This document shows positions 15,507-63,759 of a stretch of DNA of 64,000 nucleotides, in pieces. Source of the stretch: a bacterium (lineage in GTDB: Bacteria; Auribacterota; UBA6266). The notes beneath the pieces were generated by a model. The model was not told the origin of the DNA. It did no database searches and saw only the letters and a list, made by a program, of their open reading frames with translations. Position numbers and translations under genes: made by a program. The DNA lies in contig JALOBK010000001.1 of assembly GCA_023228325.1 (NCBI GenBank), positions 1,596,111 to 1,660,110 on the forward strand. Reading direction: 5' to 3'. Position 1 is the stretch's first letter. Each line of letters opens with the position of its first letter.

Positions 15507-15616
15507 AATCGACTATAATTAAGTGATATGTATTCCATTATATGAAAATAGATTAGAGTAAATGTAAGCAAAAAATACATAGAGAAAATGTTTTTATGAA
15601 AAATGAAAGGTTTCTG

Positions 15617-17305: not shown

Positions 17306-18940
17306 ATGATGTCCGGTCTGAACGAAACGCTAAATAAAGAGAAAAACATTGTTTCTTTACGGGACTATCTTCAGATAATATTCCGGAGAAAGAATTTTTT
17401 TCTGATGCCTTTCCTTATAGTGTTTCTCACTTCGATGATAGGCAGTTTTTTCCTTCCCCGGTATTATGAATCAATCGTTATCATGCTTGCCGAAGAGGAA
17501 AATATTGTAAACCCATTATCAGATGAATCAAAATTGATGCGGGTGCAAAAGGAAGAAGAATCGCTACCAGAGCAAATAAAAACAATAACATTTAAAGTTT
17601 TGAGTTATCAAAATTTATTTAAGCTTATTGGTGAATTAGGATTGGATAAAGAAATCAAAAGCCAAAAACAACTCGAGAAGACAATAAAACAAATTCAAAA
17701 ACATACAGATGTAAAAATTCTTGCCCCGGAGGTATTCCAGATATCTTATGAAGATAAAGATCCCTGGATGTCGCAGAAATTGATAAATACTTTACTGAAA
17801 ATTTTTGTTGAAGAGACAGCGAGGAGAAAAAGGGAACGGGCTGAAGAAGGCGTAGGATTTGCCCAGGCAGAGGCGGAAGAGTATAGAAAGAAATTAGCGC
17901 AGGTAGAGCAGGAATTATATGAATACAAGGAAAAATATCCCCTCCAGCTTCCCGGCGAACAGGAAGATTATAACATTAAAATGCTTATCAATTACCAGAC
18001 CCAGCTTACACAGCTTGAAATGGCTGTGCGTGAAGCGGAAATGGATAGACAGCTCCTTGATGACCAGATAATGGGAAGGGAACCTGTTATTATAACAACC
18101 GAGCTGCTGGGGCTGAACCCCATAGTTAAAAGCCTGAATGAGAGGTTGCAGGAATTACAGTTACAGTTGGATTATCTGAACACGGAAGAACCTGATTCGG
18201 AGGATATACTTAATATACAGATCGAAATAGAAAATGTAAGCGAGAAGCTCAGGATTGAAACAGAGAAAATGGTTGACGGGGAAACAGCTGTAAACGCGCC
18301 GCTCTTCTATCAGGGACTGGAGCAGAAACTCAAAGATGCGAAAAAAGACCTGGATAAACTGGAAAAAAGAGAAAAAGATGTCAGGTCGCTTGTCGGGGAA
18401 TATGAGAATAAAATCAGAAACCTTAATGAGCAGCAGTTGCAATATGTAAAACTCATAAGGGATTTTGAGGTTAATAAGAAAATCTATGAAATGCTGCGTG
18501 TTAAAGCGGAAGAGAATAAGCTTACCTCCCAGGAAGTCCAAAAAAAGGGAACAAGATATGAAATAATCGAAAAGGCGAGACTGCCCCTTGAACCGTCCAA
18601 ACCGCAAAAACTCCTGATTTCCATTGTTGCGTTTATCATAGGTTCTCTGTCGGGGTTCGGGTGTGTTTTTCTTGTAGAATTTGCAGACCATACTTTTCTC
18701 GGTGTTGAAGATTTGAAGAAGTACACCGATCTTCCTGTGCTGGGTTCTATTTCAAATATAAAAAGCAGGAAAGAAACAGATTTGAAAATTGCAAAAAGAA
18801 GGAAATTCATAGTTGTATTTGTCATGCTTATATTTTTGTTGTTAATGACGGGTATTATAAATTCCTGCATACAGGATGAGAAGATGAATGAGATGATAAG
18901 AAAAGCTACTCTTGAGAAAGAAACCGGGCCGGAATTATAA
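17306..18940 (+). CDS. Polysaccharide co-polymerase (Wzz/GumC-like chain-length determinant)
   Basis: 544 aa; N-terminal TM helix, long coiled-coil periplasmic region, C-terminal TM helix; start abuts secretin stop. Confidence 0.75.
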   Translation: MMSGLNETLNKEKNIVSLRDYLQIIFRRKNFFLMPFLIVFLTSMIGSFFLPRYYESIVIMLAEEENIVNPLSDESKLMRVQKEEESLPEQIKTITFKVLSYQNLFKLIGELGLDKEIKSQKQLEKTIKQIQKHTDVKILAPEVFQISYEDKDPWMSQKLINTLLKIFVEETARRKRERAEEGVGFAQAEAEEYRKKLAQVEQELYEYKEKYPLQLPGEQEDYNIKMLINYQTQLTQLEMAVREAEMDRQLLDDQIMGREPVIITTELLGLNPIVKSLNERLQELQLQLDYLNTEEPDSEDILNIQIEIENVSEKLRIETEKMVDGETAVNAPLFYQGLEQKLKDAKKDLDKLEKREKDVRSLVGEYENKIRNLNEQQLQYVKLIRDFEVNKKIYEMLRVKAEENKLTSQEVQKKGTRYEIIEKARLPLEPSKPQKLLISIVAFIIGSLSGFGCVFLVEFADHTFLGVEDLKKYTDLPVLGSISNIKSRKETDLKIAKRRKFIVVFVMLIFLLLMTGIINSCIQDEKMNEMIRKATLEKETGPEL

Positions 18941-34900: not shown

Positions 34901-35716
34901 GTGAAAAAATTTCCAATATTTTTATGTGTAATAGGTCTTTTATTTTGTATAATTTATTGGCCCACATTTGTCTGGATGAAAGCAAGGTTTGTTGCTACAG
35001 GCACGTATTATTCTCACGGATTCCTTGTTCCATTTGTTGTAATTTTTCTCGTGTGGAGGAAAAAAAATATATTCAAGGAATCATATGAGTCTAATAAAGT
35101 GGGAATTGTAATAATTTTGGGAAGCCTTCTTATTCATCTTCTTTCATATACATGGAAGATTTTTTTTATATCAGGATTTTCAATGATTTTTACTTTGATA
35201 GGTCTCATACTTTACGTATTTGGAAATAGAATTTTAAAAGAACTTTGGTTTCCCTTATGTTTTTTGGTTTTTATGATACCTTTACCTATATTGGTTATTG
35301 ATAACATAAGTTTTAAGTTAAAGATATTCGTTGCGCAGATAGCTACTTGTATAATAAATATATTAGGAATTCATGCGGAAAGAGAAGGCAGTGAGGTAAT
35401 ACTACAGAATACATCGCTTATGATAGGAAGTCCGTGCAGCGGCTTAAGAAGCCTGATTTCTCTCACAGCGCTTGGTTCTTTGTATGCTTATATTGTTGAC
35501 CTGTCTAATACGAGAAAAATAATCTTATTTGTTTCTTCTATTCCTCTTGCACTTTTATCGAATATAATACGTGTGGTTTTATTGCTTTGGGTTGCCAGGG
35601 GATGGGGTTCCGAAACGGCGACCGGCTGGTTTCATGATTTTTCCGGGTTTCTTGTTTTTATTTTTGCGTTTTTAGGATTAAAGATTGTGGAAAATATGCT
35701 TTCATGGAAAAGTTAG
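34901..35716 (+). CDS. Exosortase (EpsH/Xrt family transpeptidase)
   Basis: 271 aa polytopic membrane protein; conserved Cys 'GSPCSGLRS', Arg 'NIIRVV', N-terminal 'YWPTFVWM'; co-localised with EpsI and PEP-CTERM genes; GTG start. Confidence 0.85.
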   Translation: MKKFPIFLCVIGLLFCIIYWPTFVWMKARFVATGTYYSHGFLVPFVVIFLVWRKKNIFKESYESNKVGIVIILGSLLIHLLSYTWKIFFISGFSMIFTLIGLILYVFGNRILKELWFPLCFLVFMIPLPILVIDNISFKLKIFVAQIATCIINILGIHAEREGSEVILQNTSLMIGSPCSGLRSLISLTALGSLYAYIVDLSNTRKIILFVSSIPLALLSNIIRVVLLLWVARGWGSETATGWFHDFSGFLVFIFAFLGLKIVENMLSWKS

Positions 35717-36336
35717 GAAAGAAACAAATAATTCTTATAGTAATTTTATCGTTGTTTGCAGTCGCGATAATGATTCTTTATTTACGAAAAACTCTGCCTC
35801 CTACAGAGGGAAAAATAATGGATTTTCCTCTGAAAGTCAAGGACTGGCAAGGCGCTAAAGAAGATGTCGATCAAATGGTTGTAGATATACTTGAAACCGA
35901 TAAAGTGCTTTTGACCGTTTTTACAAGCCAACAAAATAAAAAAGTTTGGTTTTCGATTGTATATGGAGAGGACAACAGGTTAAGCTTTCATCCCCCCGAA
36001 AATTGTTATCTTGGCAGTGGACAAACGGAATTGTTATCAAAAGATGAAATTACTTTGGATTTAAACGGAAGAAAACTCGAGGTTAATAAGAGGATTTTTA
36101 ACACTAAAAACACTAAACAATTAGTTTTATATTGGTATATGGCAGGGGATAGGGAAATGGCGAGTTACTACAAACAACAATTCTATCTTGTATTAGATCA
36201 GATAAAGTATAGAAAAAGCAAAGGAGCTCTTATAAGGGTTTCTTCGGTCATTGTAAATGATAATGAAGAGGAAACGTATAAAATCCTCTACGATTTTCTT
36301 ATAGATATCTTACCGGTTTTAAGAGATTACTATTAA
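35704..36336 (+). CDS. EpsI-family exosortase-associated protein
   Basis: 210 aa, N-terminal TM anchor then periplasmic domain; 13-bp overlap with exosortase gene (these two are fused in some genomes). Confidence 0.7.
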   Translation: MEKLGKKQIILIVILSLFAVAIMILYLRKTLPPTEGKIMDFPLKVKDWQGAKEDVDQMVVDILETDKVLLTVFTSQQNKKVWFSIVYGEDNRLSFHPPENCYLGSGQTELLSKDEITLDLNGRKLEVNKRIFNTKNTKQLVLYWYMAGDREMASYYKQQFYLVLDQIKYRKSKGALIRVSSVIVNDNEEETYKILYDFLIDILPVLRDYY

Positions 36337-37349: not shown

Positions 37350-37961
37350 ATGAAACAAATAGCAATTATAATTGCTGTGCTTGCTTTTTCATTGAGTTCT
37401 TATGCAAGCGCGAACCTGCTTGTTAACGGTGATTTTGAGCTTACCGGTGAAGATGGTCATCTGACGGGCTGGACAATTGACTACAATCAGAATATCGCAG
37501 AAGCTCAGGATAATCCTGAATCAGGCGCCTGGCACGCAAGAAACTATAACGATGGGGGTATGTATCAGGATGTTTCAATTACCGGTGGAATGACTTATGA
37601 TATTACTGGATATGCTTATATTCCTTCCGGGACAGGCGGCAGCCCTTGGGGAACATATATAGGGGTCAAGTTTTTGAGAGCTAATGGAACCACAGCAACG
37701 GGTGGTAGTTTTCAAGTTGATATGCAGGGTTTACCAAGGGATGTATACAATTTAGCTGATACTGGTTGGGTTGTAGCTCCTTCTGATGCAGTAACCGCGA
37801 GAGTAAGGTTTGGAACATGGTCGAATGCTCCGTATGAACCTGTTGCTCCGACAGATTTTGATAATTTCTCTTTAGTGGCGGTTCCTGAACCGACTAGTTT
37901 AATGTTGTTAGGATTAGGCTTATTCGGAATCATAGGTTTCGCGGCAAAGAAGAAGAAATAA
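37350..37961 (+). CDS. PEP-CTERM sorting-domain protein with CBM-like N-terminal module
   Basis: Signal peptide then 'ASANLLVNGDFELTGEDGHLTGW'; C-terminus 'VPEPTSLMLLGLGLFGIIGFAAKKKK'. Confidence 0.85.
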   Translation: MKQIAIIIAVLAFSLSSYASANLLVNGDFELTGEDGHLTGWTIDYNQNIAEAQDNPESGAWHARNYNDGGMYQDVSITGGMTYDITGYAYIPSGTGGSPWGTYIGVKFLRANGTTATGGSFQVDMQGLPRDVYNLADTGWVVAPSDAVTARVRFGTWSNAPYEPVAPTDFDNFSLVAVPEPTSLMLLGLGLFGIIGFAAKKKK

Positions 37962-39456: not shown

Positions 39457-40071
39457 ATGAAGAAGTTAGTAGGATTAGTGGTGCTGGCCCTGTTTTTACC
39501 TACGTTTGCGAGCGCGAATCTGCTTAGCAATGGAGGGTTTGAAACCGGTGATTTAAGCGGTTGGGACACATGGAACGAGGGAAATACACAGAGTTATGAC
39601 TGGGGACATAACGGCAGCAGCCACGCTGTAGGCGGCTGGTGGGCATTTTCCGGGTGGCAGCATATTGACGGTATTAATCCGGATGCTACATATACAGTCG
39701 GAGGTTATCTCTATGATGATGTAGCGGGCGGGGAAAGTATGCGCAATGGGGTTTATGCGAATCTGGAAGCCCAGTTTAAGAAGGCTGATGATTCGATAGT
39801 GGGAACATGGTCATCGGGAAATATCACGGGCGCCGATATGGTGGATGACGCGTGGAATGAATTTATTGCGCAGATTAAACCTTCCGATTACGGAACCGGT
39901 ATTACAAGGGTTACATTTAAATGGGAAATGAATAACAACGGTTCGGGAGACGGAAGAGGCGTATTTGATGACCTTACGGTTGAAGCTGTTCCTGAACCCG
40001 GCAGTATTGTCCTTTTAGGTATTGGGCTTGCTGGAATAATCAGTTTTTACGCTGGGAAAAGGGAAAAATAG
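39457..40071 (+). CDS. PEP-CTERM sorting-domain protein with CBM-like N-terminal module
   Basis: Signal peptide then 'ASANLLSNGGFETGDLSGWDTW'; C-terminus 'VPEPGSIVLLGIGLAGIISFYAGKREK'. Confidence 0.85.
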   Translation: MKKLVGLVVLALFLPTFASANLLSNGGFETGDLSGWDTWNEGNTQSYDWGHNGSSHAVGGWWAFSGWQHIDGINPDATYTVGGYLYDDVAGGESMRNGVYANLEAQFKKADDSIVGTWSSGNITGADMVDDAWNEFIAQIKPSDYGTGITRVTFKWEMNNNGSGDGRGVFDDLTVEAVPEPGSIVLLGIGLAGIISFYAGKREK

Positions 40072-51723: not shown

Positions 51724-52743
51724 ATGGTAAAACCAAAATCATTTATTGACAGGATTGAAATAGTTGCCTGCGGGGGTGACGGCGGAAACGGGTGTATGAG
51801 TTTTCGCAGGGAAAAATATGTCCCCAGGGGCGGTCCTAACGGCGGTGACGGCGGAAACGGCGGCAATGTTGTTTTAATTGCGGATAAGAATCCTTACACG
51901 CTTCTGGATTTTTATTATAACCCCCAATTGAAAGCTAAGGGGGGAGAAAACGGCAAAGGCAAAATGATGACGGGTGAAGACGGAAAAAATATTATAAGCA
52001 GGGTTCCAATAGGGACAGTTGTCAAAGATCCTGAAACAGGGATCATACTTTGCGATTTGGTTAATGACGGCCAGGCTTATATTGCCGCTAAGGGCGGCCG
52101 GGGCGGCCGGGGAAATGCCTGTTTTAAGACAGCCACAGAGCAGGCGCCGAGATATGCCGAAAAGGGCAAACCCGGTGAGAATATCAAATTATTACTTGAG
52201 CTTAAGATAGTTGCTGATATAGGGCTTGTGGGTTTTCCTAATGCGGGGAAATCGACGCTGATAGCGGCAATTTCGTCGGCAAGGCCTAAAATTGCGGATT
52301 ATCCTTTTACTACACTTGTGCCGAATTTAGGTGTTGTTTATGTGAATAATGATAAAAGTTTTACGGTAGCGGATATTCCGGGTCTTATTCAGGGAGCTCA
52401 CAAAAATGCCGGACTCGGACATGATTTTTTAAGACATATTGAAAGAACCAGAGCAATACTGTATGTTATTAATCTGAAGCCGTTTGAAGACAGAAAACCG
52501 TCGGATGAATATACGATTTTATATGAAGAGTTGAAATACCATAAAAAAGAACTGATTCAAAAACCGTTTTTGATAGTTCTAAACAAAGTGGATCTGATCG
52601 AAAATGAAAAGGAAATCGATGAATTTATAAAAGCGGCGGGAGTTAAGAAAGAATCGGTTATCTCCGTTTCCGCGAAACAAAGGATTAACCTGGAAAAACT
52701 TGTTGAACAAGTCGGTGATTTAATAGAAAATAAAAACATATGA
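51724..52743 (+). CDS. obg: GTPase Obg
   Basis: Gly-rich Obg fold 'GGDGGNGCMSFRREKYVPRGGPNGGDGGNGG'; G1 'GFPNAGKST'; 339 aa. Confidence 0.95.
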   Translation: MVKPKSFIDRIEIVACGGDGGNGCMSFRREKYVPRGGPNGGDGGNGGNVVLIADKNPYTLLDFYYNPQLKAKGGENGKGKMMTGEDGKNIISRVPIGTVVKDPETGIILCDLVNDGQAYIAAKGGRGGRGNACFKTATEQAPRYAEKGKPGENIKLLLELKIVADIGLVGFPNAGKSTLIAAISSARPKIADYPFTTLVPNLGVVYVNNDKSFTVADIPGLIQGAHKNAGLGHDFLRHIERTRAILYVINLKPFEDRKPSDEYTILYEELKYHKKELIQKPFLIVLNKVDLIENEKEIDEFIKAAGVKKESVISVSAKQRINLEKLVEQVGDLIENKNI

Positions 52744-53876
52744 GAAAGTATCTGGAAAACGTTAAAAATGTGACGCTTAAAATCGGGACCAATGTCCTGA
52801 CGGATTCATGCGGCAGGATACAGAAGAACATTATATCTTCGATTGCGCGCCAGGTTTGCGCAATAAGAGAAAAAGGCGTCAATGTCATGATTATAAGCTC
52901 GGGCGCCATAGCGGCGGGAAGATGGAAATTAGAATTTGGCAGTAAGGAGTTGACACTCAGACAGAAACAGGCGGCGGCCGCGGTGGGCCAGACACAGTTA
53001 ATGAGATATTATGAAGATGCTTTTGCCGAAAAAGGGATTGTTGCGGCGCAGGTATTATTGACCGATGACGGTTTATCCGACAGAAAACGCCAGTTGAACG
53101 CAAAAAACACTTTATTAACGCTTATCGAAAAAAAAGCGGTGCCTATCATCAACGAGAATGATACGGTTTCCGTTGAGGAAATCAAGTTCGGCGATAATGA
53201 CAGGCTTTCTGCGCTGGTTGCCCAGATGACGGGAAGTGAATTGCTTATATTATTGACAGATACCGACGGCTTGATGGATAAAGACCCCAAAGTGGAAAAG
53301 AACGCAAAGTGTATCAGTATTGTAAACAGCATAGACGCGGGGATAGAGAGGATTTGCGGCAAAAAAGGGTCATCCCTTTCAACCGGGGGGATGTATTCAA
53401 AGATTCAGGCCGCCAGGATGGTTGTGACTGCGGGAGAGTTTGCGGTTATAGCTAATGGAAAAAGAGAAAATATTATTTCAGATATCCTTTCCGGTAAAGA
53501 TGCAGGAACTCTATTTCTGCCGTTGCGGCACAAAATGAAGGGGAAGAAACGCTGGATAGCTCATTTTAAACGTTCGTCCGGGTTCCTGGTTATAGATGCC
53601 GGCGCGGTTCTCGCATTAAGGGAGAAGGGAAAGAGCCTTCTTGCCTCCGGTATTATATCAGCGAAGGGTGATTTTTCGGCCGGGGATATTATAATTTTAA
53701 GGGATGAGAAGGGAAATGATATAGGAAAAGGGCAGATAAATTATTCTTCCGGCAATATAAAAAAGATAACCGGGTTAAAAACATCCCAAATCAAAGCTGT
53801 TTTAAGCGGAAAAGTGCTTGATGAGGTAGTCCACCGGAATAATATGGTTATATACGGCGAAACACGGGGAAAATAA
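52740..53876 (+). CDS. proB: Glutamate 5-kinase
   Basis: Amino-acid kinase domain plus C-terminal PUA domain; 378 aa; operon position before proA. Confidence 0.9.
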   Translation: MRKYLENVKNVTLKIGTNVLTDSCGRIQKNIISSIARQVCAIREKGVNVMIISSGAIAAGRWKLEFGSKELTLRQKQAAAAVGQTQLMRYYEDAFAEKGIVAAQVLLTDDGLSDRKRQLNAKNTLLTLIEKKAVPIINENDTVSVEEIKFGDNDRLSALVAQMTGSELLILLTDTDGLMDKDPKVEKNAKCISIVNSIDAGIERICGKKGSSLSTGGMYSKIQAARMVVTAGEFAVIANGKRENIISDILSGKDAGTLFLPLRHKMKGKKRWIAHFKRSSGFLVIDAGAVLALREKGKSLLASGIISAKGDFSAGDIIILRDEKGNDIGKGQINYSSGNIKKITGLKTSQIKAVLSGKVLDEVVHRNNMVIYGETRGK

Positions 53877-53877
53877 A

Positions 53878-55146
53878 ATGCAGGGTTCCGGAAAAATAAA
53901 GGAATATGTGAAACAGCTGGCTGAACAGGCAAAAGATTCTTCAAGAAAACTTGCCTTAATGAGCGCGGACCATAAAAATAACCTGTTGAAGAACATTGCT
54001 GTTTCCATAAGAAAAAACAAAGAGATTATATCGGAAGCCAATAAAAAAGACATTAAAGAAGCGGAAAAAGAAGGTTTATCGGGAGCATTGATCGACAGGC
54101 TCCTGCTGGATGGGAAAAGAATAGAGCAGATGGCGGGCGGATTAGAGGAAGTCGCGGCGTTGGATGATCCGGTGGGAAGAGTATTAAATAAAAAAACGAG
54201 GCCGAACGGGATGCAGATTTTTAAAATCAGTGTTCCAATAGGTGTTATCGCTATTATATATGAATCCCGTCCCAATGTTACCTCTGATTCGGCCGGCCTG
54301 TGCATTAAAGCCGGGAATGCGGTAATATTAAAAGGCGGCAGGGAAGCTTTTCAGTCCAATAAATCCATCGCTGCCTGCATGAGAAAGGCTATAGCCGGTT
54401 GCGGAGGCCCTGAGAATATTATTCAATTTGTGGAAACAACGGAAAGAAGCGCTGTCGCTGAAATGCTGAAATTAAATTCACTGATCGATCTGGTTATTCC
54501 GAGAGGCGGGGAAAGCCTGATAAAAGCGGTAACTGAAATGTCAACAATACCGATTATCAAACATTATAAAGGCGTTTGCCATGTGTTTGTCGATAAAGAC
54601 GCGGATTTAGATAAAGCCCTGAAGATTATCAGGAACGCGAAATGCCAGAGACCCGGTGTTTGCAATGCCATGGAAACACTGCTTGTTGATAATGCCATAT
54701 CGGAGAAATTCCTTCCTTTGGCGGCGGATATGCTGAAGAAAGAAAAAGTAGAACTCAGGGGTTGTCCCCGGACAGTGAAAATATTGAAAGGGATTAAACA
54801 GGCCGCTGAAGATGACTGGTATGAGGAATACCTGGATTTGATTTTGTCAGTTAAAATCGTGGACGGAGTTGATGAAGCCGTAGAACATATCAACAAATAC
54901 GGCTCCATGCATTCAGATGCCATTATTACCGAGAATCAGGCGTCCGCTTTGAAATTCTTGAACATGGTGGATTCTGCCGCTGTATATTTGAATGCGTCTA
55001 CAAGGTTTACGGACGGAGGACAGTTTGGGATGGGCGCTGAAATAGGTATCAGCACCGACAAGATTCACGCCAGGGGTCCCATGGGTCTTGAAGAACTCAA
55101 TACTTACAAATATGTGATTAAAGGTGATGGCCAGATTCGAGATTAG
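53878..55146 (+). CDS. proA: Glutamate-5-semialdehyde dehydrogenase (gamma-glutamyl phosphate reductase)
   Basis: 422 aa aldehyde dehydrogenase-fold; 'IPIGVIAIIYESRPNVT' typical of ProA; follows proB. Confidence 0.9.
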   Translation: MQGSGKIKEYVKQLAEQAKDSSRKLALMSADHKNNLLKNIAVSIRKNKEIISEANKKDIKEAEKEGLSGALIDRLLLDGKRIEQMAGGLEEVAALDDPVGRVLNKKTRPNGMQIFKISVPIGVIAIIYESRPNVTSDSAGLCIKAGNAVILKGGREAFQSNKSIAACMRKAIAGCGGPENIIQFVETTERSAVAEMLKLNSLIDLVIPRGGESLIKAVTEMSTIPIIKHYKGVCHVFVDKDADLDKALKIIRNAKCQRPGVCNAMETLLVDNAISEKFLPLAADMLKKEKVELRGCPRTVKILKGIKQAAEDDWYEEYLDLILSVKIVDGVDEAVEHINKYGSMHSDAIITENQASALKFLNMVDSAAVYLNASTRFTDGGQFGMGAEIGISTDKIHARGPMGLEELNTYKYVIKGDGQIRD

Positions 55147-55151
55147 TGTTT

Positions 55152-55772
55152 ATGAAAACAGGTATTTTCGGCGGTTCTTTCGACCCCGTTCATAACGGAC
55201 ATATTGAAATTGCAAGGAAAGCTAAGAGCCTGTTTTCGCTTGACAGGATTTATTTTGTTCCGTGTTATATCCAGCCTATAAAAGGCCAGCCGGCTTCCGA
55301 TGCGGAAGATAGGGTTGCCATGCTTGATATCGCCGTCAAAAATATAAAAGGTTTCAGTGTGTGTATGCGCGAAATAGAAAAAAAAGATGTGTCTTACACG
55401 ATTGATACATTAAGATATATTAAAGCCGAAAACACAAATGAAAAACTGTTTTTTATTTTAGGCGCTGATTCATTGAGCGGTATTATGTCGTGGAGAGAAC
55501 CCGGGAGCTTTTCGGACCTGTGTGAATTTATCGTATATCCCAGGAAGGGGTCGGATTCAGGGAAGATCGGGGATGCGCTGGTTAAAATTCCGGGACTCAG
55601 AGTCAATTTTATGGATGGAGGCGAAATAAACATATCGTCGTCTGTTATCCGCAGGCGGATTTCCGAAGGGAAAATCGATGAGATATCATGCCTGGATGAA
55701 GATGTAAAAAAGTATATTAAGGAAAGGAGACTTTACAGCATTGAAAAAAACGGCTTTAAAGGGAACTGTTAG
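55152..55772 (+). CDS. nadD: Nicotinate-nucleotide adenylyltransferase
   Basis: 'GIFGGSFDPVHNGH' (HxGH nucleotidyltransferase motif); ~206 aa. Confidence 0.9.
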   Translation: MKTGIFGGSFDPVHNGHIEIARKAKSLFSLDRIYFVPCYIQPIKGQPASDAEDRVAMLDIAVKNIKGFSVCMREIEKKDVSYTIDTLRYIKAENTNEKLFFILGADSLSGIMSWREPGSFSDLCEFIVYPRKGSDSGKIGDALVKIPGLRVNFMDGGEINISSSVIRRRISEGKIDEISCLDEDVKKYIKERRLYSIEKNGFKGNC

Positions 55773-56115
55773 AAAGAGAAAGGCCAGTTCGCGTGAACTG
55801 GCTAATCTATGCGTGAAAATGGCGGAAGAAAGGAAAGCTTTTGATATAACGGTGATGAAAGTAAAGAATATCTCATCAATTGCGGATTATTTTGTTATCT
55901 GCTCCGGCAGGTCCGAGAAACACGTTGACGCAATAGGAGATTTCATAGAAAAAGAGCTTAAAGACAGGAATATCATCTGCCTAAGAAGCGAAGGCATAGG
56001 CAGTTCAAGATGGGTCGTAAAAGATTATGGTGATGTTATAGTCCATATTTTCTACCATGAAATAAGACAGCGCTACAGCCTGGAGCGTTTGTGGGGAGAT
56101 GCTGAGTTTTTATGA
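55741..56115 (+). CDS. rsfS: Ribosomal silencing factor RsfS (Iojap family)
   Basis: 'ADYFVICSGRSEKHVDAIGDFI...DYGDVIVHIF' aligns with RsfS; start uncertain (TTG 55741 overlapping nadD, or ATG 55819). Confidence 0.8.
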   Translation: MKKTALKGTVRKRKASSRELANLCVKMAEERKAFDITVMKVKNISSIADYFVICSGRSEKHVDAIGDFIEKELKDRNIICLRSEGIGSSRWVVKDYGDVIVHIFYHEIRQRYSLERLWGDAEFL

Positions 56116-57809
56116 AAATTGAATTGAAAGAAATAATAGCCGGGGCTATCCTCTCCTGTTACAGGGATCTTATCGGGAATGAGGAATGCCGGATACCGGA
56201 GAATATATCGGTTGATTTCGATGTCCCCAAAAACAGGGACCATGGCGATTTGACCACCAACTTTGCGATGAAATACGCGTCTTCCGCGAAAAAGCGTCCG
56301 ATTGAACTGTCCAGGATGATTTGTGATCGTGTTTCTTCCTCGGGCATTGAAGGGTTGAAAAAGATTGAACCGGCCGGGCCCGGTTTTATTAATGTTTTTT
56401 TGGAACATGAAGTTTTTTACAATGTCGTCCTGGAAGTGCTGGATAAGCGCGAGAAATATGCCGTTTCTGACACGGGCAGGGGAAGGAAAGTAATAATCGA
56501 GTTTGTCAGCGCTAATCCTACGGGCCCCCTTACGGTTGCCCACGGCAGACAGGCTGCGGTAGGCGACGCTCTGGCAAGATTGCTTGCTAATTCGGGCTGC
56601 GAGGTTTTCAGGGAATACTATCTCAATGACAGAGGCAGGCAGATAGAGATTCTCGGGAAATCATTGTATTCGAAGTATATGAAACTTTGCGGACGGGAAT
56701 ATCCTTTCCCCGATGACGGGTATAAAGGCTCTTATATAGATGATCTGGCAAAAAAACTTTATTCCGAAAAAGGGCCGGAGTTTTCCGGGATATCCGAAAA
56801 AACGATTGAATTCATGTGCGATTACGCTAAAAATAACATCCTGGAATGGATTAAAAAAGATCTTGCGGATTTCAGTGTTGAATTTAATTCTTATTTCAGT
56901 GAAAAGAAGTTTTCAGAAACAGGAAAAGTCGAAAAAGCGATAAAATTACTTGAAAAAAAAGGACTCGTTTATGAAAAAGACGAGGCTATCTGGTTTAATT
57001 CGCGGAAATACGGTGATGACAAAGACAGGGTTATGGTTAAGAGCAGCGGCGAATGGACATATATAACACCCGATATCGCGTATCATAAGGATAAACTGGA
57101 TAGAGGCTTCAACCTTTTGATAGATTTATGGGGTCCTGATCACCACGGTTATATTCCGCGTATGAAAGCGGCGGTCCAGGCAATGGGATTTGATGCCGAC
57201 TGCCTTAAAGTGGTAATAATCCAGCTGGCCACACTTTACCAGGGAAAAAATAAACTTTCAATGTCTACGAGGCAGGGTGAGTTTATTTCTCTCAGAGAAG
57301 TAATGGATGAGGTTGGAATTGATGCCGCAAGATATTTCTTCCTGATGCTGAACACGGACAGCCATCTCGATTTTGACCTTGAACTGGCGAAAAAGAAATC
57401 GGCGGAAAATCCTGTGTATTATATCCAATACACGCATGCCAGAATTTGCAGTATGCTGGAAAAATATAATGAGAAATTCGGCCACGACTATATTCCTGTT
57501 GTACGGCCCGAAATTCTTGAAGAGCTTACCAACCGGGAAGAAAAAGACCTGATTAAAAAGATTTCCGTATTCCCTTCTGCCGCCGAGTTAGCGGCTTCTT
57601 TGCTTGAACCCCATAGGATTCATGTGTATCTGACAGAGTTGGCATCCCTGTTCCACAGCTATTATCATAAAGATTCAAAAAAATTCAGAGTTATCGGAGA
57701 AAAGGAAGATAATATTACTCTGGCCAGGATGGCATTGGTCTCGGCCGTAAAAATTATTATAGCTTCGGGACTTGGTCTTCTCGGTATTACTGCTCCGGAG
57801 AAAATGTAG
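56112..57809 (+). CDS. argS: Arginine--tRNA ligase
   Basis: 565 aa; 'FVSANPTGPLTVAHGR' (HIGH-region variant) and anticodon-binding C-terminus. Confidence 0.9.
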   Translation: MKIELKEIIAGAILSCYRDLIGNEECRIPENISVDFDVPKNRDHGDLTTNFAMKYASSAKKRPIELSRMICDRVSSSGIEGLKKIEPAGPGFINVFLEHEVFYNVVLEVLDKREKYAVSDTGRGRKVIIEFVSANPTGPLTVAHGRQAAVGDALARLLANSGCEVFREYYLNDRGRQIEILGKSLYSKYMKLCGREYPFPDDGYKGSYIDDLAKKLYSEKGPEFSGISEKTIEFMCDYAKNNILEWIKKDLADFSVEFNSYFSEKKFSETGKVEKAIKLLEKKGLVYEKDEAIWFNSRKYGDDKDRVMVKSSGEWTYITPDIAYHKDKLDRGFNLLIDLWGPDHHGYIPRMKAAVQAMGFDADCLKVVIIQLATLYQGKNKLSMSTRQGEFISLREVMDEVGIDAARYFFLMLNTDSHLDFDLELAKKKSAENPVYYIQYTHARICSMLEKYNEKFGHDYIPVVRPEILEELTNREEKDLIKKISVFPSAAELAASLLEPHRIHVYLTELASLFHSYYHKDSKKFRVIGEKEDNITLARMALVSAVKIIIASGLGLLGITAPEKM

Positions 57810-57818
57810 GATATTTTT

Positions 57819-58460
57819 ATGAAGGTTAAGGATTTTTATGATATTGATTATGAGGAGATGCGCGATATACAGAGAAAGGAAGTCTCTGAAGTTATAAGCG
57901 GAGGCGAAAACAGAGTCCTTTTCCCTGGCTTTCATCATATAATGACAACGGGAAGGGATTTTAAAAAATCCGACCTTCTTGTGACGGATAATATTTTAAA
58001 TTCGTTGGGGATTAAGGTTTTTGCGGCTGACAGAGGGGGGAATATAACCTATCACGGACCGGGTCAGATTGTCTGTTATCCTGTCATCAATCTGAAATAC
58101 TGGAAAAAAGATGTAAACTTGTTTATCCGCGTTATAGAAAATGTAATTATAGCGGTGTTGGCTAAGACAGGAATTGCCGCAGTTAAAAAAAAACAGTTGA
58201 CAGGCGTCTGGGTTAAAGATAAAAAAATAGCATCGATTGGGATAGGTTTTTCGAAGTGGGTGTCGTATCATGGTTTTTCATTGAACGTTGAACCCGGGCT
58301 GTATTATTTCTCAATTATAAATCCGTGCGGAATCAGGGATGCGGAATATACGTCAATAAATAAGGAAACGGGGAAGAACTTCAGCATTGAATTATTAAAG
58401 GGTTATATTATCGATGAGCTCGAATGCTGTTTCAACAAGGCTGCCGCCCTGGCTTATTAA
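57819..58460 (+). CDS. lipB: Octanoyltransferase (lipoyl(octanoyl) transferase)
   Basis: 'RGGNITYHGPGQIVCYPVI' and 'KIASIGI' LipB motifs; 213 aa. Confidence 0.85.
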   Translation: MKVKDFYDIDYEEMRDIQRKEVSEVISGGENRVLFPGFHHIMTTGRDFKKSDLLVTDNILNSLGIKVFAADRGGNITYHGPGQIVCYPVINLKYWKKDVNLFIRVIENVIIAVLAKTGIAAVKKKQLTGVWVKDKKIASIGIGFSKWVSYHGFSLNVEPGLYYFSIINPCGIRDAEYTSINKETGKNFSIELLKGYIIDELECCFNKAAALAY

Positions 58461-59301
58461 GAAAATATACCGGAATGAAATATCTCTTGAGACCAAAGAG
58501 ATATTAAGGTCGCTTAAATTAAACACTGTCTGTGAAAGCGCGCGCTGTCCGAACATGTGGGAATGTTTTTCAAAGCGCCGCGCTACCTTTATGATCCTTG
58601 GGGATATTTGCACCAGAAACTGCGCTTTCTGTTCAGTAAAAAAAGGATTGCCCGACCTCCCCGAAAAATCAGAACCCGCGAATATAGCCGAAGCGGTGGG
58701 CAGGTTGGATTTAAAACATGTGGTCATAACATCTGTTACCAGAGATGATCTGGAAGATGGCGGGGCAGATCACTTTGCCCGGACGGTTTCTATGATTAAA
58801 AAGATGCATTCCGATGTTGTGGTCGAAGTTTTGACGCCGGATTTTCAAGGTGACGTAGACTGCATAAGGCAGGTTGCCGAATCCGGGCCGGACATATTCA
58901 ACCATAATATTGAAACAATAAGCAGGTTATATAAACAGGTAAGGCCTCAGGCTGATTACTCCAGGTCATTAAATCTCCTGAAGTTCATCAAGGATAATTA
59001 TCCCGGTATATACACAAAATCGGGTTTGATGGCAGGCCTTGGAGAAAACAGGTATGAACTTGAGGCAACTTTCGATGACCTTATAGCGCATAGTTGCGAT
59101 ATCCTTACGATAGGGCAATATCTTTCTCCTTCCAGGAACAATATTCCCGTTGCCGAATATATCCATCCTGACGAATTTAAGTATCTGGAAAAGGTTGCTT
59201 TTGAAAAAGGTTTTTTGTATGTTATGTCCGGTCCGTTTGTGCGCAGTTCTTACAACGCGGATCAGGTATTCAGTAAAAATAACGGTAAAAAGGAGGTATA
59301 A
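58414..59301 (+). CDS. lipA: Lipoyl synthase
   Basis: Two Fe-S motifs 'CESARCPNMWEC' and radical SAM 'CTRNCAFC'; 295 aa; overlaps lipB end. Confidence 0.9.
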   Translation: MSSNAVSTRLPPWLIKKIYRNEISLETKEILRSLKLNTVCESARCPNMWECFSKRRATFMILGDICTRNCAFCSVKKGLPDLPEKSEPANIAEAVGRLDLKHVVITSVTRDDLEDGGADHFARTVSMIKKMHSDVVVEVLTPDFQGDVDCIRQVAESGPDIFNHNIETISRLYKQVRPQADYSRSLNLLKFIKDNYPGIYTKSGLMAGLGENRYELEATFDDLIAHSCDILTIGQYLSPSRNNIPVAEYIHPDEFKYLEKVAFEKGFLYVMSGPFVRSSYNADQVFSKNNGKKEV

Positions 59302-59305
59302 TCTT

Positions 59306-59593
59306 ATGTTTGAAGTCGTTGTCCCGGATCTGGGCGCTGATGTTGAGAAAGCAAAGATATCGTTCTGGCATTATGATGAGGGTGATAAGGTGGAAAAGAA
59401 CGATGACGTTGTGGAATTAGCCACAGATAAAGCCACATTTAACGTTCCGGCCCCCGAATCGGGTATAATAGCAGAGTTATGTGTTAAAGAAGGAGATGAA
59501 GTGGAGGTGGGGGAAGTTATAGCTTTTATAGATGAAGAAGCCGAGGAACTTGAACTTGTTGAAGAGGATGAAGAAGAAGATACAAAATTCTGA
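59306..59593 (+). CDS. Stand-alone lipoyl/biotinyl-attachment domain protein with acidic C-terminal tail
   Basis: 95 aa; 'VVELATDKATFNVPAPESGIIAEL' contains the conserved acceptor Lys in a DKA context; tail 'EEAEELELVEEDEEEDTKF'; AGGAGG RBS 9 nt upstream. Confidence 0.7.
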   Translation: MFEVVVPDLGADVEKAKISFWHYDEGDKVEKNDDVVELATDKATFNVPAPESGIIAELCVKEGDEVEVGEVIAFIDEEAEELELVEEDEEEDTKF

Positions 59594-59595
59594 TT

Positions 59596-60360
59596 ATGAA
59601 AATTCATTCAACTGCAATAATCGGTAAAAATGTTAAATTGGCGGATGATGTGGAAATCGGCCCCTACTCGGTTATCGATGGAGATATTAATATCGGCCGT
59701 AAAAACAGGATACATCCATTTGTCCATATTAAAGGAAAAGGAACGATAGGAGAAGGTAATGAAATCCACACCGGCGCTGTCATAGGCGATATTCCTCAAG
59801 ACCCTAATTACGAAGGGAAAAAATCTTCATTTAAGATAGGCAACAACAATAAGATCCGCGAAATGGTTACCATCCATATAGGTTCTTCAGAAAAGTCGCC
59901 GACCGTCATCGGAAACAATAATTTCATTATGGCGTGCGCCCACGTCGCGCATGACTGTGTGCTCGGTAATAATATCATAATGGCCAATGCCGCGCTGCTG
60001 GCGGGACATGTCGTTATTTTTGACCAGGTTTTCATATCGGGAGGGGTCGCAATACATCAATTTTGCAGGATAGGCAAATGCAGTATGATGAGCGGCAACA
60101 GCAGGATTTCAAAGGATGTCCCGCCTTTTATAATGGTTGCGGAAAGAAATGAGGTTTACGGAATCAATGCTATCGGCATGAAAAGGAACTCATATCCCAG
60201 AGAAACAATAAATGAAATAAAGGAGATCTATAAAATATATTATAAAAAGGGAATAAATAAACATAATGCCATGGATAAGATAAAATCAATCGGTTTTAAA
60301 ACACCTGAAGCAGGTGAATTTATAGAATTTATTATCAGCTCAAAAAGAGGGGTCTGCTGA
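59596..60360 (+). CDS. lpxA: Acyl-ACP--UDP-N-acetylglucosamine O-acyltransferase
   Basis: Left-handed beta-helix hexapeptide repeats throughout; ~254 aa, 'IHSTAIIGKNVKLADDVEIGPYSVI' N-terminus typical of LpxA. Confidence 0.8.
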   Translation: MKIHSTAIIGKNVKLADDVEIGPYSVIDGDINIGRKNRIHPFVHIKGKGTIGEGNEIHTGAVIGDIPQDPNYEGKKSSFKIGNNNKIREMVTIHIGSSEKSPTVIGNNNFIMACAHVAHDCVLGNNIIMANAALLAGHVVIFDQVFISGGVAIHQFCRIGKCSMMSGNSRISKDVPPFIMVAERNEVYGINAIGMKRNSYPRETINEIKEIYKIYYKKGINKHNAMDKIKSIGFKTPEAGEFIEFIISSKRGVC

Positions 60361-60456
60361 TTATATTCAAAATATTCAAAAAAGGGCTGGAAATACCCAG
60401 CTCTTTTTTTTATGCTGTTTATGGTATTTAATGTTATTAAAATAGAGTAAAAATAT

Positions 60457-61572
60457 ATGAACAGACTTCTTTTGTGTTATATCTCCCGGAGGTCAGGGCA
60501 TCATAAAGCGGCTCTTGTCCTGGAAAATGCGCTGAAAACGGCAAACCGGGACCTTAAATTGAAAGTTATTAATCCTTTTCATTACACCAATCCGCTGCTT
60601 TCCAAGATGACTTTAAAAACATATATGGGTTTGATACGGAGAACACCCGAAATATGGGATTATTTGTATGATAACAGAAATGTAAAAGCCAGGACAGTTA
60701 AGATCAGGAATTTTTTCCAGAAAATAAGCATGGCCAGGATAGATAAACTGCTGAATGAATTTTACCCCGATATTGTGGTTTGCACACAGGCTTTGCCGTG
60801 CTGTCTGTTCTCTCAATACAAGAAAGTAAAAGATAAAAACATAAAGGTCGCCGCTGTAATCACGGATTATGTAGTGCATTCTTATTGGATAAATGATGAG
60901 GTTGATATGTATTTTGTGCCGTCCCGGGAAGCCGCAGACCGCCTTATTGAGGAAGGTATCGCTGCTGACCGCGTATATGTATCCGGCATACCGATAGATT
61001 TAAGGTTCAGCGATAATACAGATAAGCCAAGGGCAAAGATAAAACTTGGATTGCCGGCGTCAAAATCACTGGTTACCATTATGGGAGGAGGGTACGGCTT
61101 AGGGTCTCTTGAAGATGTAATAACTGAACTATTGAATATTTCCGGTGAAACATTTTTGCTTGTTATAGCCGGAGGTAATAATAAGCTGTATGAAGCGCTT
61201 AACAGGGATTATGGCAGCAGAGAGAATATCAGAATAACAGGATATACCGATGAAATAAATATTATAATGGATGCTACTGATATATTGATATCCAAACCCG
61301 GGGGCATAACTTCGGCGGAAACCATGGCAAAAGGAGTCCCGATGATTATAAATTCTCCGTTACCGGGACAGGAGAAGTCAAATGCCAGATACTTAAGCGA
61401 TAAAAACGCCGCGTTGTTATCAAGGAACGCGAAGGATGCCGGTGATTTGACAAAAAAACTGCTTACAGGCGAGATCGACAAGAAAAATTTAGTTGAAAAT
61501 GCTTTAAAAATCGGGAATTTAAAAAGCGCCGGGATAATATCACAAAAAATAAATGAATTATGGTTAAGATAA
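60457..61572 (+). CDS. GT28-family glycosyltransferase (MGDG synthase/UgtP-like diacylglycerol glycosyltransferase)
   Basis: 'ISRRSGHHKAALVLENAL' N-terminal motif, 'VITDYVVHSYWINDEVDMYFVPS', C-terminal 'KPGGITSAETMAKGVPMI' match UgtP/MGDG synthase pattern rather than LpxB. Confidence 0.75.
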   Translation: MNRLLLCYISRRSGHHKAALVLENALKTANRDLKLKVINPFHYTNPLLSKMTLKTYMGLIRRTPEIWDYLYDNRNVKARTVKIRNFFQKISMARIDKLLNEFYPDIVVCTQALPCCLFSQYKKVKDKNIKVAAVITDYVVHSYWINDEVDMYFVPSREAADRLIEEGIAADRVYVSGIPIDLRFSDNTDKPRAKIKLGLPASKSLVTIMGGGYGLGSLEDVITELLNISGETFLLVIAGGNNKLYEALNRDYGSRENIRITGYTDEINIIMDATDILISKPGGITSAETMAKGVPMIINSPLPGQEKSNARYLSDKNAALLSRNAKDAGDLTKKLLTGEIDKKNLVENALKIGNLKSAGIISQKINELWLR

Positions 61573-62429
61573 TATATTTTTCTTTACTGCATTTTCTGGC
61601 TTTGCATCTGCCCAGGAGGATAAGCTATGCGATAGCATGGTTTATTGCGAATTTGAATTTTTTTCTTAACAGAGCGAGCAGGAGAGGCGTTATCGCAAAT
61701 TTATCCGTAATAATGGAGTTTAAAGGCAGAGACATCAGGGATAATTCAACAAAGAGGGAAATAAAAGGAATAGCCAGAAGGACTTTTATTAATTTCGGGA
61801 AATATCTTGTTGATTTTTTCGGGGCCGGGAATTTAACCAGGGATTTTATCAACAGAAAAATTGAGATAAACGGTTTAGAAGCGCTGGACAAAACGATTAA
61901 AAATAACAAAGGCGGTATTTTTGTTTCAGTTCATCTGGGTAATTGGGAGTTGGGCGCCATAGTTCTTGCGCTGCTGGAATATCCTATAAATGTTGTGGTA
62001 TTGCCGCATAAAAATAAAAAAGTGGATGGATTATTTGTTGAAAAAAGGACAAGTAAACATGTAAAAGTTATCCCCATAGGGTATGCTCTCAGAAGATGTT
62101 TTGAAGCGTTAAGAAAAAATGAGATTGTGGCCGTATTAGGCGACAGGGATACTACTTTAAACGGGGAAGTGCATAAATTTTTCGGAAAAAGATGTATTTT
62201 GCCCAAAGGCTCTGTAGACATCGCGTTGCGGACAGGTTGTAATATAGTATTTGGGTTTTTTGTCAGGAAATCATATGATAAATACCTATTTGAGATTAAC
62301 GGCCCGATAGAGGCTGATAAGAATAATATATCGAGAGATGAATTGTGGGACAAGATAATCGTGAAAATGGAAGAAATGATTTTAAAATATCCTGACCAGT
62401 GGTTTGTTTTTTATCCTTTATGGAGTTGA
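61560..62429 (+). CDS. Lysophospholipid/lipid A late acyltransferase family protein (LpxL/HtrB-like)
   Basis: 'VHLGNWELGA' (HX4E/D acyltransferase motif); 289 aa; N-terminal hydrophobic anchor. Confidence 0.75.
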   Translation: MVKIIYFSLLHFLALHLPRRISYAIAWFIANLNFFLNRASRRGVIANLSVIMEFKGRDIRDNSTKREIKGIARRTFINFGKYLVDFFGAGNLTRDFINRKIEINGLEALDKTIKNNKGGIFVSVHLGNWELGAIVLALLEYPINVVVLPHKNKKVDGLFVEKRTSKHVKVIPIGYALRRCFEALRKNEIVAVLGDRDTTLNGEVHKFFGKRCILPKGSVDIALRTGCNIVFGFFVRKSYDKYLFEINGPIEADKNNISRDELWDKIIVKMEEMILKYPDQWFVFYPLWS

Positions 62430-62435
62430 TGGCAG

Positions 62436-63122
62436 ATGGAAATAATCGCTTTAATCAGCGCGTTTAATGAAGGAAGATATGTTGCGGGCGTAGTCGGGAA
62501 AGCGAAAAAGTACTGTAAAGAGATAATTGTTGTGGACGACTGCTCAGAGGATAATACATCCGATGAAGCAAAATCGGCGGGGGCGGCTGTTTTAAGGCAT
62601 GATATCAATAAAGGCAAAGGCGCGGCGATAGGAACGGGGCTTAGTTACCTGGCGGGGAGAAATTTTGATGCGGTCGTGCTGATGGATGGTGACGCCCAGC
62701 ATGACCCGGATGACATTCCGGTGTTAGCCGAATGTATGGAAAGGACCGCTGCCGATATTGTAATAGGTTCCAGGATGCATAATCCGGAAGATATGCCGTT
62801 GATAAGATTGCTTACCAATAAGTTTATGAGCTGGATTCTCAGAAAGTATACGAAAATCAGTTTAAGCGATACGCAATGCGGGTTCCGTCTCATCAAGAAA
62901 CATGTAATAGATAATTTAAGCTTAAATTCCGATAAGTTTGAAATTGAATCAGAACTTATCATTAAAGCGGCGGCAAAGAAGTTTAAAGTGTCTGAAGCTC
63001 CTGTAAAGACAATTTACGGTTCTGAAAAGAGCAAGATAAGACCTTTCAGAGATACTTTGAGATTTATAAAATTTATGCTGTCTGTTAAAAAAGGGCAAAA
63101 TGCGGAATTTACAGGAAAATGA
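62436..63122 (+). CDS. Glycosyltransferase family 2 (polyprenol-phosphate sugar transferase-like)
   Basis: 'ALISAFNEGRYV', 'VDDCSEDNT', 'LMDGDAQHDPDDIP'; 228 aa soluble GT-A. Confidence 0.8.
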   Translation: MEIIALISAFNEGRYVAGVVGKAKKYCKEIIVVDDCSEDNTSDEAKSAGAAVLRHDINKGKGAAIGTGLSYLAGRNFDAVVLMDGDAQHDPDDIPVLAECMERTAADIVIGSRMHNPEDMPLIRLLTNKFMSWILRKYTKISLSDTQCGFRLIKKHVIDNLSLNSDKFEIESELIIKAAAKKFKVSEAPVKTIYGSEKSKIRPFRDTLRFIKFMLSVKKGQNAEFTGK

Positions 63123-63759
63123 TTTTTCCGAACAAAGAAGGGAAATGGTACATGGCCAGCTCATGGCCAGGGATATATATTCTGAAAAGGTAATAAAAGC
63201 TTTTTTGTCCGTCAGGAGAGAATTATTTGTGCCTGAAGAATCCCGTGAGCACGCGTACAGGGATTTTCCTCTGGGAATAGGATTCGGACAGACTATTTCT
63301 CAGCCGTATATAGTAGCTTTAATGACACAGGCGGCAGATGTTTTTGAAGGGTCAAAAATATTGGAAATCGGGTCAGGCTCCGGGTATCAGGCCGCAATAC
63401 TGGCTTATATGGGAGCGGAAGTTTACTCTGTTGAGAGAATACAGGGCTTGAAAGAACTGGCTGAGCGAAACTGCGGGAAAGCCGGTTTCCCTGCAGTCAA
63501 ATTTAAAATCGGAGATGGGAGTCTCGGTTGGCCCGAATACGCTCCTTACGATATAGTCATCGTTACCGCGGCTTCTCCCCATATTCCGGGAGAACTTGTT
63601 AATCAGCTTAAGGAGAATGGCAGGATGGTTATTCCTGTGGGCGGGTCGGCGGTTCAGGATTTATTATTGGCCCGAAAAAAAGATAATAATATTATTAAGC
63701 AAAAATTATGCGGCTGCAGGTTTGTTCCTCTTATAGGAGAAGATGCTTGGAAAGATTGA
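63100..63759 (+). CDS. pcm: Protein-L-isoaspartate O-methyltransferase
   Basis: 'ISQPYIVALM', SAM motif 'ILEIGSGSGYQAAILA', 'VTAAS'; 219 aa. Confidence 0.9.
   Translation: MRNLQENDFSEQRREMVHGQLMARDIYSEKVIKAFLSVRRELFVPEESREHAYRDFPLGIGFGQTISQPYIVALMTQAADVFEGSKILEIGSGSGYQAAILAYMGAEVYSVERIQGLKELAERNCGKAGFPAVKFKIGDGSLGWPEYAPYDIVIVTAASPHIPGELVNQLKENGRMVIPVGGSAVQDLLLARKKDNNIIKQKLCGCRFVPLIGEDAWKD

Follow-up and report, generated by a model that had tools for sequence, protein, structure and literature searches.

The stretch of DNA analysed here, 64,000 nt from an Auribacterota bacterium (UBA6266) and called the window below, has a small gene for a lipoyl-domain protein, the carrier, between lipA and lpxA (Table 1). 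The lipA stop codon occupies 59299-59301, and the gap from lipA to the carrier is 4 nt. Because lpxA begins only 2 nt past the carrier stop, no remainder of an E2 subunit is present at the locus, and the polypeptide itself, which stops after 95 aa, has neither a PSBD nor a 2-oxoacid_dh catalytic domain. An earlier note on this DNA had described a 95-aa ORF with a strong ribosome-binding site, directly between the two genes and not part of an E2 subunit. The analysis bears out both for this locus.

Table 1. Features of the lipB-lpxA region, in window coordinates
Feature	Position	Strand	Details
Stand-alone lipoyl carrier gene	59306..59593	+	95 aa plus stop; ATG 59306, TGA 59591-59593
Shine-Dalgarno AGGAGG	59291..59296	+	9 nt 5' of the carrier ATG; within the last lipA codons
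lipB, octanoyl transferase, 213 aa	57819..58460	+	Pfam LplA-B_cat E=1e-33; NCBIfam TIGR00214 141.5 bits (cut-off 83.55)
lipA, lipoyl synthase, 295 aa, radical SAM	58414..59301	+	TIGR00510 366.2 bits (cut-off 310.25); PRK05481 395 (cut-off 203)
lpxA	59596..60360	+	NCBIfam TIGR01852 295.4 bits (cut-off 231.05); next gene after the carrier
Lipoyl domain proper, residues 1-77, flattened beta-barrel	59306..59536	+	AlphaFold2, Foldseek, phmmer
Lys42 codon AAA, predicted lipoyl-lysine in TDKAT	59429..59431	+	Invariant alignment column; hairpin turn of the model
Acidic C-terminal tail, residues 78-95, predicted disordered	59537..59590	+	Low pLDDT; Asp/Glu-rich

Is this ORF a real gene? Two competing ORFs were rejected. 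One has 147 aa and a TTG start (59150-59593); the family profile described below aligns to it from residue 53, the position at which the 95-aa form has its Met1, and therefore the 95-aa form is the gene. The other, a Ser-rich antisense ORF of 78 aa (59371-59607, minus strand), is a reverse-complement reading of the GAA/GAG-rich acidic tail. Comparison of the window carrier gene with its relatives gives dN/dS of about 0.07 (range 0.04-0.08), which indicates purifying selection, and such selection was found also in operons without lpd. The carrier ORF is confirmed as real, far beyond chance.

The Pfam profile Biotin_lipoyl (PF00364) matches residues 3-75 with 74.1 bits (cut-off 22.1, E=7.8e-21) and is covered over positions 2-73 of 73. 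In the AlphaFold2 model, calculated on the family alignment, pLDDT is above 90 for residues 1-70 and 50-57 in the tail, and Lys42 occupies the tip of the hairpin, in the turn that joins strands 34-39 and 44-48. This match and the confident model bear out the lipoyl/biotinyl attachment fold, with a lysine in TDKAT, proposed in the earlier note. In NCBIfam the best matches are partial and fall on the N-terminal lipoyl domains of SucB, AcoC and AceF, all far below the whole-protein cut-offs (72 bits against 449, with only profile positions 2-92 of 408 covered). The top sequence matches in a phmmer search of the PDB are E2p lipoyl domains, E. coli AceF (7b9k, E=1e-25) together with Thermoplasma 2l5t, and Foldseek ranks E2 lipoyl domains first (2l5t, 1qjo, 1ghj, 1gjx) and biotinyl domains after them. 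The GCV_H profile (PF01597) gives no match at E<=0.01, in keeping with the claim that the protein is not GcvH-like. Judged from its sequence, the assignment of the carrier as a stand-alone E2-type lipoyl domain is supported. The tail was also rightly called strongly acidic, with Asp or Glu at 12 of the 19 residues from 77 to 95, along with one Lys and a terminal Phe. Several clades of the family have comparable tails, 10-20 residues long and acidic; since most members have none, the tail is lineage-specific and not family-defining.

How widespread is this protein? Among 5.8 billion proteins searched there were 46 homologues, none shorter than 76 or longer than 111 aa. In an alignment of 43 members K42 is invariant within the motif TDKATFNVPAP, at a mean column identity of about 51%. 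When one genome per GTDB species was scanned, 183 relatives came up, and the best 80 of the 183 are each a separate ORF of 75-96 aa with its own stop codon. The family was then defined by a length of 75-96 aa, the motif TDKATFN[VI]PAP, at least 100 bits on the family profile, and lipB and/or lipA directly upstream. With 128.4 bits and both genes directly upstream, the window protein belongs to it. Members score 100.7-135.7 bits per domain, on a profile that was itself built from members and with only the extremes of the distribution sampled, while among the 150 highest-scoring E2-like proteins of a library none of the 338 domains exceeds 84.8 bits. That comparison set came from a profile search of a representative library of 1.84 billion proteins, in which the top 150 were all E2 proteins with 2-4 lipoyl domains; the search is uninformative on fusions because summed multi-domain E2 scores outrank single-domain members. 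A genuine E2 fragment (locus L010) scores 82.4 bits. Its protein, P0044, which had come up as a weak homologue, was rejected as a family member beside E1 and E2: the locus is a fragmented pyruvate dehydrogenase operon on a poor contig, and the 82 bits are E2-like. This operon (E1, E2, E3; L010 7336-13009) is spread over 9 short ORFs on a 234-kb JGI contig, and the breakage looks like assembly frameshift errors.

At least 80 species-level genomes, from several phyla, have a conserved carrier. The window DNA is about 95% identical to contig DJVC01000055.1 ('bacterium UBP3_UBA6266', locus L012) and to Logan contigs, and the nearest named relatives belong to Candidatus Auribacterota, with 70-89% protein identity. 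Most other members are from Candidatus Omnitrophota, and some are labelled Planctomycetota/Planctomycetia, Poribacteria or NPL-UPA2. Some variation in cysteine was seen within the family. At alignment position 51, nine residues after the lipoyl-lysine, many lpd-linked members have Cys (NVPAPCSG; for example L005, L058 and L067) and the window protein has Glu; another clade has Cys at position 20 (ACWH). Note also the database names. NCBI labels family members 'lipoyl domain-containing protein', and at JGI four of them of 76-92 aa (P0014, P0020, P0026, P0027) are named 'pyruvate/2-oxoglutarate dehydrogenase complex dihydrolipoamide acyltransferase (E2) component'. Such E2 naming of carriers of 76-95 aa could yield false dehydrogenase-complex calls in metabolic reconstructions.

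Which genes accompany the carrier? ORFs were called in all loci, clustered by all-against-all BLASTP and labelled with Pfam and NCBIfam, which left 82 non-redundant loci; four of these end without an upstream gene, so that 78 are informative. In 67 of the 78, lipB and/or lipA, or a LipB-LipA fusion, lies within three same-strand upstream genes, and the carrier gene often overlaps lipB or lipA by 4 or 13 nt. This linkage, conserved across phyla, makes the carrier very likely a substrate of LipB and LipA, and its lipoylation is what we infer from the conserved adjacency to the two genes. The earlier note had suggested a dedicated acceptor for the two enzymes. The acceptor part is strengthened by the linkage kept in 67 of 78 loci, but a 'dedicated' or sole acceptor is not supported: by the published KO tables, several family genomes encode GcvH as well, with the rest of the glycine cleavage system.

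A second recurrent partner, missed by the earlier note and absent from the window operon, is the dihydrolipoyl dehydrogenase gene, lpd, which lies directly 5' of lipB in 30 of the 82 loci. The Lpd proteins score 452-512 bits on TIGR01350 (cut-off 408.8), with the exception of the Velamenicoccaceae form, and the CLNxGC redox disulfide and the HPxxSE dyad are present in every one of the 32 complete copies. The Velamenicoccaceae Lpd is short, 416-417 aa, and falls just below the cut-off with 396-398 bits (L058 8078-9325, L068 8079-9329). In five loci (L009, L030, L038, L050, L060) LipB and LipA are fused into one protein of 505-595 aa ending near locus position 10007-10020, and the carrier overlaps the 3' end of the fusion gene by 13-20 nt, which is tighter than the arrangement in the window. 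In the public UBA6266 assembly, lipB appears split into two ORFs (L012 8495-9155, equivalent to window 57819-58460). A lipB pseudogene in UBA6266 was rejected, as the 19-nt insertion containing NN is a scaffold join; lipB is intact, with 213 aa, in the window and in three Logan assemblies.

The argS gene of the window ends at 57809, lipB follows after 9 nt, and the operon has no lpd. The two closest relatives (L015 and L016) likewise have lipB 9 nt after argS and no lpd, and the order in another Auribacterota relative (L013) is argS-lpd-lipB-lipA-carrier-lpxA. With the Lpd of that relative as query, the only database match above 48% identity came from the relative's own species (94%). Of the unnamed NCBI matches, the two best were rejected as the Lpd of the window lineage, one belonging to an unrelated organism with a gcvT-H-PA-PB cluster and the other to an unrelated MAG. 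Since the window operon is without lpd and no close Lpd orthologue came out of the database search, any reading of the operon as a redox module rests on the relatives.

The order usual in the family upstream is LeuCD-type aconitase, isocitrate-dehydrogenase-like gene, malate dehydrogenase, Lpd, LipB, (LipA) and carrier, and downstream it is LL-DAP aminotransferase, MGDG-synthase-like gene, LpxL-like gene, GT2 and PCMT. The isocitrate-dehydrogenase-like and malate dehydrogenase genes were observed directly 5' of lpd-lipB-carrier in about 30 loci (among L005-L091). Because the downstream genes are housekeeping genes and match those downstream in the window, part of the arrangement is inherited gene order. 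As housekeeping genes, the five downstream genes, together with aroQ, efp and accBC, were rejected as functional partners. The window block is likewise co-directional and of housekeeping character, from rpoA-rplQ to dapL and the lipid A genes. From obg to the PCMT methyltransferase (51724-63759, plus strand) 15 genes follow one another with gaps of at most about 100 nt, usually below 10 nt, or with overlaps, and the lipB-lpxA stretch shows no convincing terminator. For these reasons the lipoate genes are taken as embedded in a long housekeeping array and not as a discrete operon.

Two other gene clusters were noticed. One clade of Omnitrophota has a fatty-acid synthesis cluster 1-4 kb 3' of the carrier, with a ketoacyl synthase, FabG, a FabZ/FabA-like gene and a second ketoacyl synthase (L033, L047, L048, L058, L064, L067, L068, L074, L080, L083), and in seven of these loci an opposite-strand ORF of 91 aa without a Pfam match lies inside it. 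The cluster may be a source of octanoyl-ACP for LipB, or a general FAS II locus. The window itself also holds a PEP-CTERM/exosortase exopolysaccharide locus unrelated to the carrier (14632-15291 on the minus strand, 15596-18940, 34901-36336, 37350-37961, 39457-40071), comprising an exosortase (EpsH), a DUF3485 partner, at least three PEP-CTERM proteins, a secretin and a GNVR chain-length-determinant protein.

Do these organisms have the classical users of lipoate? Seeds for GcvH, GcvPA, GcvPB, GcvT, AceE-type E1, PSBD and the E2 core gave no tblastn match in the 1.33 Mb of neighbourhood around the 90-odd family loci, and no E1, PSBD or 2-oxoacid_dh catalytic domain occurs among the conserved annotated neighbours. 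In the literature, Ace Lake Auribacterota are described as fermenters with a horseshoe TCA ending at 2-oxoglutarate, and their description does not mention pyruvate dehydrogenase or glycine cleavage (PMC9324843). Gorgyraia and Velamenicoccia, of the Omnitrophota, are likewise described with pyruvate:ferredoxin oxidoreductase and a horseshoe TCA (PMC10066038). One Omnitrophota genome has PFOR, KorAB, glycine cleavage genes, lipA and lipB in its KO list, which does not contain K00161-K00164 or K00627 (PMC10066038 source data). A 2026 preprint reports 2-oxoglutarate dehydrogenase (K00164, K00658) as absent from 176 of 176 complete Omnitrophota genomes, in which isocitrate and malate dehydrogenases are nearly universal and almost the sole TCA enzymes retained. 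These are the genes that adjoin lpd in the family loci.

Glycine cleavage is more variable. Table S5 of PMC10066038 gives per-genome counts of glycine cleavage KOs, and the excerpt of it used here lists the full system in many species. All five components are listed for UBA10174, 2-02-FULL-48-11, 2-02-FULL-52-10, JABMQS01 and JABMRG01, which correspond to loci L069, L040, L076, L073 and L077. UBA6210 and UBA9636 (L058, L068) are listed with GcvP, T and H and with K00382 = 0; the short Velamenicoccaceae Lpd may miss the annotation threshold, and this may be why K00382 was scored absent there. By our own count, about 54 species rows of the excerpt have Lpd and no GcvP, T or H, including most Gygaellales and Gorgyraeales. 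B70-G16 is in this group, and its single Lpd is that of the Mdh-Lpd-LipB-carrier cluster (L034). In some lineages the carrier coexists with GcvH; elsewhere it is the sole visible partner of Lpd, LipB and LipA. Where a family genome has a complete glycine cleavage system with GcvH, the Lpd next to the carrier may be no more than the L-protein of that system.

What, then, does the carrier do? The explanation we prefer, and hold to be somewhat probable, is a free-standing lipoyl carrier that would be built by LipB and LipA and that, in many relatives, would diffuse as a dithiol carrier with Lpd cycling it. Lys42 would be octanoylated by the co-transcribed LipB with octanoyl-ACP as donor, and LipA would convert the octanoyl group on the carrier to lipoyl. 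The holo-carrier would then be a diffusible 'swinging arm', and in many relatives the Lpd encoded just 5' of lipB would interconvert its disulfide and dithiol forms with NAD(H). LipB, LipA, Lpd and the carrier could in this way form a minimal lipoyl-protein/NADH redox module with no need of an E2 core. Such a free carrier seems the most economical explanation, with apparent parallels in GcvH and its L-protein, in the lipoyl-fused E3 and in the carrier proposed for Pelobacter (PMC3543383). The conserved neighbours indicate no partner with which it would exchange electrons or acyl groups.

Could the protein be something other than a working lipoyl carrier? A biotinyl carrier of the BCCP type shares the fold, and there are Foldseek matches to BCCPs and weak NCBIfam matches to biotin carrier families (32 bits against cut-offs of 75-95). 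Against this, the carrier has no biotinylation motif (A/V)MKM but the DKA of TDKAT in its place, and it lies beside lipB and lipA and not beside birA or carboxylase genes. Moreover, in eight loci a canonical BCCP/AccB with the motif EAMKLMN lies with AccC a few kb 3' of the carrier. With a separate AccB beside AccC the carrier is not the biotin carrier, and we regard biotinylation as extremely improbable. Nor is it much easier to see here a mis-called ORF, or an E2 gene that has decayed to a non-functional remnant, although the protein is short and no partner is visible in the window. A remnant is hard to reconcile with the low dN/dS (0.04-0.08), with a lysine and motif invariant across 43 sequences at about 50% mean identity, with the strong ribosome-binding site and tight coupling to lipA, and with conservation in at least 80 species-level genomes of several phyla; it is very improbable.

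Two other alternatives keep the protein lipoylated, and both are unlikely, though not to the degree of the preceding ones. In a split 2-oxoacid dehydrogenase the carrier would be a detached lipoyl arm, and an E1 and a lipoyl-less acyltransferase core encoded elsewhere would be served in trans; in corynebacteria, the lipoyl domains of AceF serve OdhA in this way. The carrier is indeed closest in sequence to E2o/E2p lipoyl domains, its acidic tail resembles the start of an E2 linker, and Lpd, Mdh and an isocitrate-dehydrogenase-like gene are its neighbours. But E1, PSBD and the 2-oxoacid_dh domain were not found in the 1.33 Mb around the 90-odd loci, searched with AceE-type E1 and E2 seeds; K00164 and K00658 are absent from the 176 complete Omnitrophota genomes of the 2026 preprint; and the one genome with a KO list has PFOR and KorAB and is without K00161-K00164 and K00627. 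That a separate gene of 75-96 aa is kept family-wide also argues against a recent E2 split. The other alternative, to which we give a similarly low chance, is an assembly scaffold or relay, on which lipoate would be built before an amidotransferase moves it to GcvH or to other acceptors. There is a precedent in Bacillus subtilis, where GcvH relays lipoate to E2 proteins. The most constant neighbours of the carrier are the assembly enzymes LipB and LipA (67 loci), above Lpd (30 loci), some clades link it to LipA alone, and GcvH is present alongside it in several family genomes, all of which would fit a relay. However, no second LplA/LipB-family gene of the LipL type is conserved in the family loci, and in the characterised systems LipB acts directly on GcvH and on E2 domains. 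What is more, the carrier persists in lineages which, in the Table S5 excerpt, have Lpd and no GcvH, P or T, in a phylum without OGDH, and there a relay would have no target. That strong selection has kept the carrier in the lineages where it is the sole visible partner of Lpd, LipB and LipA speaks against a role purely as relay, and also against an E2 remnant in decay.

If the preferred explanation, a free lipoyl carrier, is correct, how far might its role extend? We tentatively suggest, as a possibility rather less likely than the carrier function itself, that in anaerobic PVC-related phyla LipB, LipA, Lpd and the carrier make up a self-sufficient electron-carrier system of NAD(H)-linked dithiols. 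The phyla meant here depend on PFOR, retain only fragments of the TCA cycle and are often without glycine cleavage. If true, lipoate would be used outside the 2-oxoacid dehydrogenase and glycine cleavage complexes in a thioredoxin-like role; the carrier could feed, for example, peroxidases or other disulfide reductions, and lineages without lpd, like that of the window, would pair it with some other reductase.

Lipoate is normally viewed as the cofactor of five classical complexes. In this group of uncultured anaerobes, the costly LipB and LipA, and often Lpd, are kept together with a tiny E2-type carrier, while OGDH is reported absent in 176 complete Omnitrophota genomes and glycine cleavage, going by the Table S5 excerpt, in dozens of species. 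With the carrier family there is a specific argument, open to test, that protein-bound lipoate is used in a non-classical way. Free-standing lipoyl proteins as such are already known, namely GcvH, LbpA (PMC6067878) and GcvH-like paralogues. In the literature searched, on lipoate in Omnitrophota and Auribacterota and on stand-alone or orphan lipoyl proteins, no description of the carrier family was found. What is apparently undescribed there is a stand-alone carrier of the E2 type that is conserved, among PVC-related anaerobes, in lipB/lipA(/lpd) operons.

Several known systems resemble the carrier in part. The E2 lipoyl domains (E. coli AceF/SucB; Thermoplasma acidophilum 2L5T) have the same fold and the same DKA lipoyl-lysine hairpin, with 36-42% identity in structural alignments, and their LipB/LipA chemistry is presumably the same. 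In E2, however, they are followed by a linker and by peripheral-subunit-binding and catalytic domains, none of which accompanies the carrier in its separate gene, and on the family profile they reach at most 85 bits against at least 100 for the carrier family, which is marked by TDKATFNVPAP. Bacillus subtilis BLAP (YngHB, 1Z6H) is also a stand-alone protein, of about 73 aa and the same fold, but it is a weak match (E=3e-5), was deposited as biotinylated and has a different gene context. Neisseria P64K (1GJX, 5U25), an E3 with a fused N-terminal lipoyl domain, is an example of a lipoyl domain tied to E3 and not to an E2 core, and both of its structures were recovered as matches to the carrier. 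P64K is a fusion, whereas the carrier and lpd are separate genes with lipB between them, and the window operon is without lpd.

Two further single-domain lipoyl proteins come from the literature. LbpA of the sHdr sulfur-oxidation system (PMC6067878) is a single-domain lipoyl protein encoded, like the carrier, beside its own maturation enzymes, and LarG of Pelobacter carbinolicus (PMC3543383) is a lipoyl protein beside Lpd that has been proposed as a disulfide electron carrier. Both are GcvH-like, while the carrier is E2-type. LbpA is matured by LplA and radical SAM enzymes of the LipS1/S2 type and is linked to hdr, whereas the carrier goes with LipB and LipA, and no hdr genes were found among its neighbours. 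A functional analogy is offered by Mycobacterium tuberculosis, where the Lpd-DlaT-AhpD-AhpC relay acts as an NADH peroxidase: Lpd keeps the protein-bound lipoyl group reduced and electrons pass to thiol peroxidases. This relay uses the lipoyl domains of a full E2, unlike the carrier, among whose conserved neighbours there are no AhpC or AhpD genes. GcvH, finally, is of the PF01597 family, to which the carrier has no match; it is encoded in addition to the carrier in several genomes, and the P or T proteins are not linked to the carrier. Yet it too is a small free lipoyl protein, a lipoyl relay in Bacillus and mitochondria, and one that shuttles between enzymes and is reoxidised by dihydrolipoyl dehydrogenase.
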